64,000 bases of DNA, taken from assembly GCA_020833055.1 (NCBI GenBank), contig JAJHQZ010000001.1, positions 301,141 through 365,140 of the forward strand, in the 5' to 3' direction. This document shows positions 22,200 to 27,121 of this stretch, in pieces (position 1 is the stretch's first letter; each line of letters opens with the position of its first letter). The translations under genes were made by a program, and so were the position numbers. This stretch comes from Candidatus Korarchaeum sp. (GTDB taxonomy: Archaea; Korarchaeota; Korarchaeia; Korarchaeales; Korarchaeaceae). Under the pieces are notes generated by a model. The model saw only the letters and a program-made list of their open reading frames with translations. It ran no database searches and was not told where the DNA came from.

Positions 22200-22694
22200 C
22201 TATATCAGTCCCCTCACCTTAGATTGAGCTATCCTGAGCTCCTGCAGGAGGAGGAACCATATATGAGGGGCTACCTTCAATATATCCCTAGAGGAGATTA
22301 TACCGACGACCCTCCCATCATAATTCACGACGATGAGTCTCCTGATGTTCCTCTCTATCATTATCCTAGCTGCTTCATCTATATCAGTATTATCCCTTAT
22401 CGTCACAGGGTCCTTCGTCATTATCTCAGATACCTTGACGTCCTCAGGCCTCCTCCCATCCCCAACAGCTATGTATCTAGTTATGAGGTCCCTCTCCGTG
22501 ACTATCCCCTTCAGCTCACTGCCTTCCATGATGACGACAGAGCCTATATTATTCTCCTTCATCAATTTAGCAGCTTCATAGACAGTCCCATCAGGTCTCA
22601 TAGTTATTAAATTCCTATTCATCACTTCAGATACCTTCGTCCTTACCTTAAGCTCCTCCTCCCTCTCGGGTATCAACGACCACATCTTCATCAC
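22200..22694 (-). CDS. CBS-domain protein (2 CBS)
   Basis: KVSEVMN, IGSVVI...GIVTERD, VSEIMTKD and RRLIVV...GIISSRD. Confidence 0.9.
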   Translation of the reverse strand: MMKMWSLIPEREEELKVRTKVSEVMNRNLITMRPDGTVYEAAKLMKENNIGSVVIMEGSELKGIVTERDLITRYIAVGDGRRPEDVKVSEIMTKDPVTIRDNTDIDEAARIMIERNIRRLIVVNYDGRVVGIISSRDILKVAPHIWFLLLQELRIAQSKVRGLI

Positions 22695-24565
22695 TCCTCT
22701 ACCCTCACCTTACCTGGGGGCATCGACCTCACTATGTTATCTATGGTCAACTCATCCGCCGGGACTTCAGCCCCTTCTCCTATTTTAACGTTACTCAAGA
22801 GCTCTATTAGTTTATTTTTTATCTTAATAGCTGCCTCCTCCTTGCTCATAGATCCCGGCTTTATCCTAACGGAGCATATAAAGGGAGCATCGGGAGGGGC
22901 TGCTGTCAGCTTCATACCATCTGGTGTCTCCTGTATCCCTACAGACAGCTCTAACTTAGCCCTCAAATAGTTCCTCTTCCCTGTTATGTAGAAACTGCCC
23001 TTTGGGAGGTACATTCCCGGAGGAGCGTGCTTAGAGACCTGCTCGCCCTTAACGTAATAGACATCCGCATAAGAGAGTCCTTCCTTCCAAGCTCTCGAGA
23101 AAGATGCTGCTGCTATTGCTGCTTGTTCTATAGATCTCTGATCGATCTCCCCCTCTGCCTTCAGGACGACGACAGCTCCTCCGGGCATGTCCACGTGGAA
23201 GAAGAGGTCATCATCGTCCATATACTTACTCACTATCTCAGAGTTCGTTTGAGCGTCCCTTCCGCAGATCACTAGGTTCCCAGAGGATGTATAGAACCAT
23301 CTGAACCTCTCATACCACCTCACCTTCTTCCTGGGCTTAGGTGAGAGTTCGAGTCTCCTCTCCTCTAGCGAGGATTCTATCTGCCTCAGCCTCTCCATTA
23401 TAGTGGATACAGCCTTATCTATCCTCAGGGCCTTTTCTCTCACTTTCTTCGCCCTATCGTAGTACTCTGAAGCATTTTCTGAGGCAGATTTCCTTATATC
23501 AAGCTCTATCTCCTCACCCTCTAGGGATATGATGACCTTACCCGACTCCCGATCTACTCGCTTTATCAAGATGTGTTCTCCTCCTGACCTCGCTTGAGCG
23601 AGGGCATCCTCGACCTCGTGGATATTTGAGAAGATTATATCACCTATCCTCTTCATTTGGGCATAGGACCTCTCATACTCTCCCTTCAAAGAGATCTGTC
23701 TCTCTATCTCCCTCCTGAGTGAGGAGATCCTCTCATCCTCAACGGATATTCCCTTCGATCTATAATAGTCCTCTACAGCGTCCGATAGTAGGTCTCTACT
23801 CACTCTCTCATACTCGAGGTGGGAGAGAGGGAAAGCGGAGTACTCGACTATCTCCTCACCATCTAAGTATAGAGTGGGCTCAGCTCCCTTACTCATGAGC
23901 TCAGAGATCTCATTTGCTAATGCATCTAGATCCAAATCCGATAGCTTCCTCTCAGCATCGATCCCCAACTTCAGGAGTACTTCATTGAGGTAAGGGGGGC
24001 CTAATCCGAAGCCTATAAGGGCCTTCCAAACTTTCTCATCCGGTGATATCCTCCCCAATACTCTAATAACATCTTCTCTGGAGAGACTAGGGGTCTCCTG
24101 CCAGAGGGAAGGGGGTAGCTTATATATCTCTCCCGCTCTTATCTTCCTATCCCTGTACTCAGCTCTGCGTTGAGCAGCTACTATCTCATCGCCCGATAGT
24201 AGTATCAAATTACCTCCGCCGAAAAGCTCCACTATTAACTTCATCCCTCTGGGAAATTCGAAAGAAACTATCCTCTCCAGACCGAGCTGAGATACCCTCT
24301 CTATCCTAGCGTTCTCTAAGTGCTTCCTCAAAACCATCACGAAAGGGGACGGTGTCTGGGGCTTCGTCCATTTGAGCTTCGTGAGGAAGAGGAACCCCCT
24401 AAGATCGATAAAAATCTCCCTCCTTCCATCGACTTCTGGATGGAATGAGAGGGAGAACGAGCTCTCACCGATATTGTAGATCTTCTTTATGAAACTACCC
24501 TCAACCCTTCGTAACTCCCTGATTATATGAGATATCTCGAGACCGGTCATCCCCCTGAGTTTCAT
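22691..24565 (-). CDS. rqcH: Ribosome rescue protein RqcH/Rqc2 (NEMF/NFACT family)
   Basis: FVMVLRKHL, ERIV.F, ELFGGGN, ENAS.YY..AKK, WYERFRWF, GRDA..N and GSF.I.G.R. Confidence 0.93.
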   Translation of the reverse strand: MKLRGMTGLEISHIIRELRRVEGSFIKKIYNIGESSFSLSFHPEVDGRREIFIDLRGFLFLTKLKWTKPQTPSPFVMVLRKHLENARIERVSQLGLERIVSFEFPRGMKLIVELFGGGNLILLSGDEIVAAQRRAEYRDRKIRAGEIYKLPPSLWQETPSLSREDVIRVLGRISPDEKVWKALIGFGLGPPYLNEVLLKLGIDAERKLSDLDLDALANEISELMSKGAEPTLYLDGEEIVEYSAFPLSHLEYERVSRDLLSDAVEDYYRSKGISVEDERISSLRREIERQISLKGEYERSYAQMKRIGDIIFSNIHEVEDALAQARSGGEHILIKRVDRESGKVIISLEGEEIELDIRKSASENASEYYDRAKKVREKALRIDKAVSTIMERLRQIESSLEERRLELSPKPRKKVRWYERFRWFYTSSGNLVICGRDAQTNSEIVSKYMDDDDLFFHVDMPGGAVVVLKAEGEIDQRSIEQAAIAAASFSRAWKEGLSYADVYYVKGEQVSKHAPPGMYLPKGSFYITGKRNYLRAKLELSVGIQETPDGMKLTAAPPDAPFICSVRIKPGSMSKEEAAIKIKNKLIELLSNVKIGEGAEVPADELTIDNIVRSMPPGKVRVEE

Positions 24566-24705
24566 TTAAATCACTGAGTATCTTAAGGGACCCCGCTCTT
24601 AAATGATCTTACTCAAGCGGGATCCTGACTCCGAGTACAATTCAGTGGGTAGCTGAGTCATGCTCCAGCTCAATGTTTTATATTTTGTAGTGATAACTTA
24701 ACCCG

Positions 24706-25557
24706 ATGAGGCCCAAGCATAAAATCTACTACTTCAGGCTCTCAGCTTCCTCCCTAGTAGGGATCCTCAACGGCCTCCTAAGGGTAGATCCAGCAGTAGG
24801 ACTCTCAGCGTTCATCTTCACTTACTTCTTAGTGACTCCGCTCTCGCTCAGGATATGGAAGGATGAGCTCAAAGGAATGGGGCTCATGGAGATATATAAG
24901 GAAGCGATAGGTTCCTCTCTATTAGCCTTGATCTTCTTTTGGTCTCTTACAATGAGCTTTACAGGACAAGGGGTAGCATTAGCTGTTGTTAGGGAGAAGG
25001 GAAGCGGGATATATCCGATAGAGACGTTGGATGGGAGGCATTTACCTCCGGGCAATGAGGAGATGATGGGCTACAGTGTCGTTTATCTCAATATCTCGGA
25101 CCATCTGAGAGATGCGGAATTAGGAGTCTGTCTGAACGGGACCTCTTCATTCAGAATGGGGAGGTATTACTTGACAGTGAGCGATATCATATCACTGAGG
25201 ATCGAGCTGAAGCCATTCGATCCCGGGGATAGGGAGATCTTGAGGAGGATCTTGGGGGACTTCTCCATCTACAGGAATGGGACGATTATTTTCGGTAAAA
25301 ATAGAGCCCATCTGGGTGAGAGTATCAATATGTCATCCAATGGATTGAATATATCCTTGAAATTCTTTGGACCGAATGATATTACCTTAGAGATGAGGTC
25401 GCCTATCAACACCTCTAAGGGCTCTCTCCTCAATTCATTCATTAAGGTCAGGAGTAGTGACTCTCAGTTGTGTTTATTCGATTCAGTCAAGCCTAAGATC
25501 GGGAGGAGGACGATAAGCCTTCAGGGATATCATATAGTGATCCTCCCAGGGGGATGA
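24706..25557 (+). CDS. Membrane protein: N-terminal EMC6/Rab5ip-like 3-TM domain plus a ~200-aa soluble domain
   Basis: IYYFRLSASSLVGILNGLL...GLSAFIFTYFL...SSLLALIFFWSL resembles EMC6 (Y.R...S.L.G...G.LGL.G..GF.FY...LF..VLFWT). The family call is by eye. Confidence 0.55.
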   Translation: MRPKHKIYYFRLSASSLVGILNGLLRVDPAVGLSAFIFTYFLVTPLSLRIWKDELKGMGLMEIYKEAIGSSLLALIFFWSLTMSFTGQGVALAVVREKGSGIYPIETLDGRHLPPGNEEMMGYSVVYLNISDHLRDAELGVCLNGTSSFRMGRYYLTVSDIISLRIELKPFDPGDREILRRILGDFSIYRNGTIIFGKNRAHLGESINMSSNGLNISLKFFGPNDITLEMRSPINTSKGSLLNSFIKVRSSDSQLCLFDSVKPKIGRRTISLQGYHIVILPGG

Positions 25558-25970
25558 AGATGGGTAGGAGGTTCCTAGAGTTAGAAGCGGATGTTGGATT
25601 TGAGGTATGGGCTGAAGATATAAATTCCCTCTTCGAAGAGGCGGCCCTCTCTATGTATGAGATAATGGTGGATGTGGAGAAAGTGGGGAGGAGTGTAGAG
25701 AGGAGTATAAATATAAATGCTCCCGATATAGAGATGCTACTTCACCATTGGTTATCGGAGCTTCTCTTCATCACGGACGTAGAGGGGATAGTGTTCTCCG
25801 ATTTCGAGGTCAAGATATCAGGGAACGATCTCGAGGGGAGGGCATGGGGTGAATTCATAGATATAGAGAAGCACAACCCGAAGACCGAGATAAAGGCTGT
25901 CACTTACCACAAGTTGAGCGTGAGGGAGGAGGGGGGTATCTGGAGGTGTACTGTGGTCTTGGATATATGA
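25554..25970 (+). CDS. Archease
   Basis: ADVG.EV, LFEEAA, LL..WLSELL, EIKAVTYH and C-terminal VLDI. Confidence 0.92.
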   Translation: MKMGRRFLELEADVGFEVWAEDINSLFEEAALSMYEIMVDVEKVGRSVERSININAPDIEMLLHHWLSELLFITDVEGIVFSDFEVKISGNDLEGRAWGEFIDIEKHNPKTEIKAVTYHKLSVREEGGIWRCTVVLDI

Positions 25971-26122
25971 GGGACTACTCTCCGAAATCTTATTAAATTT
26001 CTCTACCCTTTATTCGATTATTTAGAAAAATTTATCTCAAACTTCCCAATCCCGGAGCTCTGCCTTTGAAAGAAACTTTAATAAACGAGGGGAGCATCCC
26101 TCCCCGAAAGAGAGGTGGCCTT

Positions 26123-27121
26123 ATGCCAAGGAGACACGGCTCTCTGCAGTACTACCCTAGGAAGAGAGCAGCTACTCAGAAGGCTCTATTCAGATCTTAC
26201 CCGGAACTCTCGGTTGATAAGCCGACTTTAGTAGCCTTCCCAGGATACAAGGTCGGTATGGTGCACGTCTTACTGAAGGAGGACAGGCCAGGTAAACTGA
26301 ACTTCGGTCAGCAGATAACTCTAGCTTCTACTGTGATAGAGACCCCTCCTATTGAGGTAGTGGGTTTCAGGGCTTATAAAGAGGATTACTACGGTCTCAA
26401 ACCTCTAGTTACCGCAGTGAGGATAGAGAAGAAGGATCCTATATCGAGGCTCTTGACGATAGGCGATGGTGTGGATAACTTTAATGAAGCTCTCCCTAAG
26501 CTTGAAGTTGCTAAAGTGAGTGAGATCAGGATACTATCATACACTAGGCCGGATCTAGCCGGTATCCATAAGAAGAAACCTGAGTTCATGGAGATACCAG
26601 TTAAGGGAGGGGAAATGGAGGAGAGGATAGAGTTCGCTAAGTCGCTAGTCGGCTCCCAGCTGAAGGTAGATAGTGTCTTCAAAGTAGGCCAGCTCGTCGA
26701 TGTGACTGCTGTGACTAAGGGGCACGGTTGGCAGGGGGTCGTGAGGAGGTTCGGGGTAGAGTTGTTGAGGCATAAGGCTGGGAAGGGGAGATGGAGAGTT
26801 GGAAGCCTGGGCTCGAGGCACCCACCTTACGTCACTTGGAGAGTACCGAGAGCTGGGCAGACGGGTTATCAGAAGAGGACAGAGTACAACAAGAGGATAC
26901 TGATGATTGGAGATCTGACTAGAGGCGATATAGACATATCCCCAAGGGGAGGCTTCAAGAATTACGGTATATTGAGGAGCCAATACCTATTGCTATCTGG
27001 CTCCGTCCCAGGACCGGCAAAGCGTTTCGTCTTCATAAGACATCCAATAAGGCCTAAGTACGCCGAATTACCTGCTCCAGAGATATACTACGTGAGCTCG
27101 GTCGGGTGGCTTAGGAGGTGA
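26123..27121 (+). CDS. rpl3: 50S ribosomal protein L3
   Basis: PRRHGSLQYYPRKRA, F.GYK.GM, VTKGHGWQGVV.RFG and PRAGQ.GY..RTEYNK. ATG 26123. Confidence 0.97.
   Translation: MPRRHGSLQYYPRKRAATQKALFRSYPELSVDKPTLVAFPGYKVGMVHVLLKEDRPGKLNFGQQITLASTVIETPPIEVVGFRAYKEDYYGLKPLVTAVRIEKKDPISRLLTIGDGVDNFNEALPKLEVAKVSEIRILSYTRPDLAGIHKKKPEFMEIPVKGGEMEERIEFAKSLVGSQLKVDSVFKVGQLVDVTAVTKGHGWQGVVRRFGVELLRHKAGKGRWRVGSLGSRHPPYVTWRVPRAGQTGYQKRTEYNKRILMIGDLTRGDIDISPRGGFKNYGILRSQYLLLSGSVPGPAKRFVFIRHPIRPKYAELPAPEIYYVSSVGWLRR

Follow-up and report, generated by a model that had tools for sequence, protein, structure and literature searches.

The eukaryotic EMC (endoplasmic reticulum (ER) membrane protein complex), GET and TMCO1 insertases are thought to descend from archaeal YidC and its EMC6-like partner. 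A gene in the 64,000-nucleotide stretch of DNA analysed here (the window; positions 301,141 to 365,140 of contig JAJHQZ010000001.1, assembly GCA_020833055.1, from a Candidatus Korarchaeum sp.) encodes an EMC6-like protein in which some 200 residues follow the third transmembrane (TM) helix, raising the question of what these residues are and whether they make the protein a 'proto-EMC' component, as an earlier note on this DNA had proposed. Altogether, our results favor a model whereby the protein is a korarchaeal EMC6-like subunit of a YidC insertase with a lineage-specific, non-catalytic module on the outer face of the membrane, a reading that we regard as fairly probable when taken as a whole. 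The part of it that concerns an EMC6-like insertase subunit is correct yet already-known biology (Lewis & Hegde 2021, BMC Biol 19:266, PMC8675477), while the C-terminal domain appears to be new. In window coordinates, the gene and its two domains are:

24706..25557 (stop codon included), + strand: intact open reading frame (ORF) for the whole 283-residue EMC6-like protein with its predicted C-terminal extracellular domain

24706..24963, + strand: EMC6/OPTI-type three-TM domain, residues 1-86, assigned by PF07019 and by a family profile against the PDB

24964..25554, + strand: C-terminal all-beta domain, residues 87-283, predicted to be extracellular, with six N-x-S/T sequons and the Cys142-Cys256 pair

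In a collection of 5.8 billion proteins, 24 full-length homologues were found (237-291 aa, 35-100% identity). All are korarchaeal, and those with names are entered as 'hypothetical protein' from Candidatus Korarchaeum or Korarchaeota metagenome-assembled genomes; NCBIfam holds no model matching the 283-residue protein.

The N-terminal membrane domain

Residues 1-86 comprise a basic tail, TM1 (~12-25), a short loop, TM2 (~31-48), a basic loop (49-66) and TM3 (~67-85) with an invariant Trp79; the tail and the basic loop are predicted to be cytoplasmic and the short loop to lie outside. Hydropathy and the AlphaFold2 model place the three helices at residues 3-24, 29-50 and 60-85. Pfam EMC6 (PF07019, formerly Rab5ip) covers residues 7-81 (profile positions 2-79 of 81) and scores 25.5 bits with the first 90 residues and 24.9 bits in a six-frame search of the genome, both above the curated cut-off of 23.3 bits. 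The family is phylum-wide, with PF07019 matches in 41 of 43 Korarchaeota genomes, nearly always one per genome and 39 of them above the cut-off, and the best Korarchaeota orthologue reaches 44.7 bits (E 3e-11). By profile search, the window's genome (1.39 Mb, 99.5% complete) contains exactly one EMC6-like gene. As a separate observation, the Pfam model was built from eukaryotes, and korarchaeal scores on it exceed those of most other archaea; only 5 of 158 archaeal genomes outside the phylum are above the cut-off.

Could this likeness be an artefact of composition, produced by three hydrophobic helices in an unrelated membrane-anchored surface protein? In keeping with such an explanation, the whole 283-residue protein is borderline on the Pfam model (22.2 bits, just below the cut-off), and a profile made from the korarchaeal family only reaches EMC6 in the PDB at E 0.07 only. 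When the N-terminal 90 residues alone were used in a word-based homologue search, nothing was returned; standalone relatives came from six-frame searches of genomes with Pfam and custom profiles. In these, a hidden Markov model (HMM) of the korarchaeal N-domains matches small standalone proteins (E 1e-12 to 2e-5) from other lineages of archaea. In an alignment that joins 12 korarchaeal domains with 7 standalone archaeal ones (A4), the Trp in TM3 is invariant and the Gly in TM1 nearly so; the profile of this alignment matches, over the full length, OPTI (chain 7tut_9, E 4e-12, 49.5 bits), yeast EMC6 (6wb9_6, E 1.7e-7) and human EMC6 (6ww7_F, E 5.5e-7), the next match in the PDB being unrelated at E 0.28. 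The HMM matches, the confinement of the A4 matches to OPTI and EMC6, and a head-to-head arrangement with an NFACT gene that is shared with many of the standalone genes and points to orthology refute the artefact explanation; the score of the best orthologue also speaks against it, and we accord it an almost negligible probability. The EMC6-like identity of the N-terminal domain, which the earlier note had proposed from the three-TM pattern and from an FW that closes TM3, is on this evidence highly probable: both the profile and the solved structures agree with it, and Trp79 is invariant in archaeal EMC6-like proteins and aligned with the Trp of EMC6 and OPTI. Between orthologues, the dN/dS (ratio of nonsynonymous to synonymous substitution rates) of the TM domain is 0.07-0.31.

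Among solved structures, OPTI (E 4e-12) and not EMC6 (E 2e-7) is the best match of the A4 profile. OPTI (RAB5IF/C20orf24) is the obligate partner of the TMCO1 insertase and has the same three-TM architecture as the korarchaeal domain; it differs in being a eukaryotic ER protein of 129 aa without an exoplasmic domain and in being part of the multipass translocon. EMC6, a three-helix bundle with a cytosolic N-terminal tail (PMC7292650), belongs to the same Pfam family and shares with the predicted topology of the korarchaeal protein the cytosolic tail and an exoplasmic C-terminus. However, EMC6 has only ~110 aa, and the lumenal mass of the EMC is provided by the separate subunits EMC1, EMC7 and EMC10 (PMC7292650).

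The closest parallels are in other archaea. Lewis & Hegde found one EMC6-like protein in each archaeal proteome queried (PMC8675477), and AlphaFold2 predicts that the archaeal EMC6-like protein and YidC form a heterodimer via the distal face of helix 5, as in EMC6-EMC3 (PMC8675477; restated in PMC13734099), with MJ0480/MJ0606 of M. jannaschii giving a high-confidence model (PMC8675477); as of 2021, archaeal YidC in cells had not been the subject of any published biochemical data (PMC8675477). Like the korarchaeal domain, archaeal EMC6-like proteins such as MJ0606 and Lokiarch_50810 are three-TM bundles with the conserved TM1 Gly and TM3 Trp and are encoded in single copy, in genomes in which the YidC/DUF106 gene lies beside secY, and many have NFACT as a head-to-head neighbor. 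The window's genome likewise has exactly one DUF106/EMC3_TMCO1 gene (PF01956, 82.4 bits), which encodes 167 aa and lies directly downstream of secY on another contig (contig 2, 135262-135717, - strand; ORF at 1489-1992 of the extracted locus). From homology and from the published predictions for other archaea, we infer that the korarchaeal protein pairs with this YidC. Two further features of the partner were seen: its locus (contig 2, 133762-137217) has small ribosomal-protein-like ORFs downstream of the YidC/DUF106 gene, and the protein contains one N-x-T sequon (NQT) in a predicted outer loop between its last two helices.

Distribution, topology and fold of the C-terminal domain

Genes taken from 33 genomes, covering all sampled Korarchaeota families, each encode 278-321 aa made up of an EMC6-like domain of ~85 aa followed by ~200 aa. 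In the phylum-wide alignment of the latter (A3), identity to the window's domain is 11-42%, the closest relative excepted. Despite this divergence the sequences can be aligned over their whole length, and they have in common an invariant Gly, a G-Y/F-N motif, a strand that begins directly past TM3 and a C-terminal 'YxF...RTxRV..YxVV' block. The A3 profile was searched in six frames against 401 genomes (43 Korarchaeota and 358 other archaea). It found the domain in 42 of the 43 Korarchaeota genomes (E 1e-28 to 9e-72), directly following the N-domain match wherever no contig end breaks the gene, and gave four partial matches only, about the number expected by chance, in the 358 others (E 0.0015-0.008). 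A narrower profile (A2) searched against 1.84 billion representatives returned three clusters, all of them fused proteins of ~290 aa with the match at ~88-290; because this profile missed divergent members of the phylum and is too insensitive to prove restriction by itself, the wider A3 was used.

Other archaea have the N-terminal domain in a short form. With the joint N-domain profile, EMC6-like genes are found in 126 genomes from outside Korarchaeota; among the matches listed, their frames are 73-211 aa long, bar one weak partial match. At 27 loci from many other archaeal families, the EMC6-like protein stops 0-20 residues after TM3. The korarchaeal protein is, at 283 aa, not of the small stand-alone type of ~90-130 aa that ends just past TM3; whereas known archaeal EMC6-like proteins have ~85-185 aa and end 0-20 residues past that helix, it adds a domain of ~200 aa that is predicted to be extracellular. 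Because the domain is confined to Korarchaeota and absent from the 358 other archaeal genomes, its distribution marks it as an accretion of this lineage rather than as ancestral to parts of the EMC. Purifying selection acts on the domain (dN/dS ~0.1), the values for orthologue pairs with unsaturated dS being 0.09-0.15, similar to those of the membrane domain.

The predicted orientation of the protein places this domain outside the cell. Across 39 non-redundant sequences, the N-terminal tail and loop 2 contain a mean of 2.8 and 4.1 Lys plus Arg residues, respectively, compared to 0.4 for loop 1, a positive-inside pattern that argues for an N-in/C-out topology, the same as that of eukaryotic EMC6. 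The C-domains contain a mean of 5.95 N-x-S/T sequons compared to 1.66 expected from shuffled sequences (3.6-fold), with enrichment in all 39 sequences, while the membrane domain has 0-2, so that sequons occur almost only after TM3; one of them, N191-G-T/S in a YRNGT motif, is found in every member of the closer family. The only cysteines of the window's protein are Cys142 (25129-25131) and Cys256 (25471-25473), which co-vary, both being present in Korarchaeum-type sequences and both replaced by Tyr in a sister group (P0021-P0024), and this suggests a disulfide that was lost as a pair in one lineage. The positive-inside rule, the sequon enrichment and the co-varying cysteines make it very probable that residues 87-283 are extracellular, in agreement with the suggestion of the earlier note that they lie on the face opposite the N-terminus; the topology and the glycosylation are predicted from sequence.

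With regard to the fold, the full-length AlphaFold2 model has a pLDDT (predicted local distance difference test score) of 64.6, and Foldseek searches with it returned noise only. Modeled by itself from a phylum-wide alignment of 37 sequences, the domain reaches a pLDDT of 89.7 and a pTM (predicted template modeling score) of 0.84 and has 19 strands and two short helices, which upholds the description of a beta-rich domain of ~200 aa after TM3. This model has no significant counterpart among 350,542 PDB chains (best E 0.13, TM-score at most 0.23, none at E 0.001 or below) or in the viral fold library BFVD (best E 0.04), and the sequence belongs to no Pfam or NCBIfam family, its profile finding nothing below E 0.3 among PDB sequences. 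No internal repeat was detected by hhalign on sub-alignments (best probability 6%). Scattered Pfam matches to single members among the 37 C-domains, such as RnlA_toxin (two members, best E 5e-4), were judged to be chance. We therefore regard the domain as a candidate new fold as judged against the PDB and BFVD.

These searches bear on the idea that the domain is a remote homolog or ancestor of EMC1/7/10 or of the P1 domain of YidC. The idea is tempting, since the domain would sit at the same, exoplasmic face of an insertase complex of the Oxa1 superfamily and shares its beta-rich character with EMC7, EMC10 and P1; moreover, the P1 chains 3blc_A and 3bs6_A do occur in the Foldseek list. However, these two matches are noise (E 0.72, probability 0.06-0.08, TM-score 0.20-0.21), no EMC1, EMC4, EMC7 or EMC10 chain is among the top 50 even though EMC structures are in the library, no sequence profile links the families, and the domain occurs in Korarchaeota only, the other sampled archaeal lineages carrying the short form. 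The proposed resemblance to the lumenal EMC subunits, with their beta-propeller or beta-sandwich domains, thus found no support in the fold comparison, the 'proto-EMC' interpretation is supported by neither fold nor distribution, and we consider homology to any of these domains very improbable. The large, beta-rich exoplasmic P1 domain of Gram-negative YidC (3blc, 3bs6), a beta-supersandwich, nevertheless offers an analogy of function and position only: it too is attached to an Oxa1-superfamily insertase, but it is part of YidC itself, as an insertion between TM1 and TM2, and not of a partner subunit.

Possible roles of the outer domain

In our model, the N-terminal domain would be a three-helix subunit that packs on helix 5 of YidC/DUF106, by homology with EMC3-EMC6, TMCO1-OPTI and GET1-GET2, the two proteins together making up a heterodimeric membrane-protein insertase. 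Both the N-terminus and the loop between TM2 and TM3 would be cytoplasmic, and TM3 would exit the membrane straight into an all-beta domain of ~200 residues on the outer face that is compact and N-glycosylated and, in the genus Korarchaeum, braced by a disulfide. The first strand of this domain starts ~4 residues past TM3, that is, without a linker, and its best-conserved positions (G89, G101, G110, P115, Y123 and the equivalent of N124) are in the membrane-proximal first 40 residues; the short gap and the membrane-proximal conservation argue that the domain sits on the membrane surface beside the TM bundle rather than on a stalk. Only G, P, Y, N, F and R columns reach at least 75% conservation, and because of this we see no catalytic signature. 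We suggest that the outer domain may act as a non-enzymatic cap or platform that stabilizes the pair of YidC and the EMC6-like protein, or that receives short translocated segments of substrates, in a manner analogous to, and not homologous with, the lumenal EMC1/7/10 cap and YidC P1. An insertase-linked, non-catalytic role of this kind is a tentative proposal to which we give somewhat less than even weight. It is also tempting to speculate that the domain, glycosylated and of unseen fold, is a third outer 'cap' on an Oxa1-superfamily insertase, gained independently in Korarchaeota and convergent with bacterial YidC P1 and the eukaryotic EMC lumenal module, carried by the EMC6-type subunit and acting on or with substrates at the outer face, although this more specific version is unlikely.

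The main alternative is that the outer domain has nothing to do with insertion and serves in contact with the envelope or S-layer, as an adhesin or receptor, or as a component of a surface structure, with the EMC6-like bundle as a mere N-in/C-out anchor. We judge this rather unlikely. The domain evolves much faster than the N-domains (11-42% identity to the window's sequence compared to 18-51% for the N-domains of the phylum), is glycosylation-prone like surface proteins and lacks similarity to any insertase accessory domain, all of which would fit a surface protein. By contrast, the fusion is kept in 42 of the 43 genomes of the phylum without a split or loss, there is no stalk or linker past TM3 and conservation is highest close to the membrane; moreover, the protein is the product of the sole EMC6-like gene of the genome, so that a second function would have to coexist with the insertase role.

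Besides this alternative, several points weigh against an outer-face module on an insertase subunit: the sub-threshold Pfam score of the whole protein, the fact that the pairing with YidC rests on homology, the low confidence of the full-length model, which does not fix where the outer domain lies with respect to the TM bundle, and the lack of detectable relatives of the C-terminal domain, which leaves its function without support from homology. Still, the module on the EMC6-like subunit remains the reading that we favor, and it would have several implications. It replaces the tempting 'proto-EMC' idea with an elaboration that is lineage-specific and analogous rather than ancestral; it provides an example of insertases gaining exoplasmic modules and a candidate new protein fold; and the phylum-wide variant, with its large, well-folded outer domain, could help in purifying the archaeal heterodimer and in imaging it.

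Promoter and neighboring genes

The gene is flanked by the following features:

24677..24684, + strand: TATA-like box TTTATATT, read from the sequence by eye, its center ~26 nt 5' of the ATG

25554..25970, + strand: archease, probable second cistron (PF01951 E 3e-45, NF001617 E 1e-40)

22691..24565, - strand: NFACT, a ribosome-quality-control factor (Rqc2/NEMF-type; PF05833 E 6e-53, PF05670 E 3e-31)

The position of TTTATATT relative to the ATG leads us to propose a leaderless mRNA start, making this element the probable promoter of a leaderless transcript of the EMC6-like and archease genes. The stop codon of the EMC6-like gene overlaps the ATG of archease by 4 nt (ATGA), and genes for L3, L4, L23, L2 and S19 follow archease past an AT-rich gap, in line with the tight coupling to archease upstream of a ribosomal-protein operon that had been noted before. 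Within the window's taxonomic family, the gene order NFACT (divergent), EMC6-like, archease, L3 is kept, and the distance between the EMC6-like and archease genes, a 4-nt overlap here, is 5-20 nt elsewhere. In the most distant Korarchaeota families, no archease adjacency was seen within the flanks examined, and the NFACT pairing persists there. Although the L3 ORF as listed opens with a TTG (26066), the conserved N-terminus of L3, MPRRHGSLQYYPRKRA, begins at an internal ATG near 26123, so that the AT-rich gap comprises ~150 nt (25970-26123) with TATA-like runs. Judging from the sequence, transcription of the ribosomal-protein operon probably relies on a promoter of its own rather than on simple read-through from the EMC6-like/archease pair.

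On the other side, a 140-bp spacer separates the EMC6-like gene from the divergent NFACT gene, and this head-to-head pairing is kept throughout Korarchaeota. The arrangement is not described in PMC8675477, PMC4075521 or PMC5898192, and a link between NFACT and EMC6-like genes is not mentioned in Makarova et al. 2015. The sole remark of Lewis & Hegde on location is that the EMC6-like gene is distant from the ribosomal/SecY/YidC cluster (PMC8675477), and the neighbors of archaeal NFACT given by Burroughs & Aravind are Mut7-C and AMMECR1, with no membrane protein among them. NFACT is also head-to-head with a standalone, short EMC6-like gene at 14 of the 27 loci from other archaeal families (L049-L052, L054-L057, L059, L061, L065, L066, L069 and L072 in our numbering). 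The NFACT pairing hints at a co-regulation of membrane-protein insertion and ribosome rescue in archaea.
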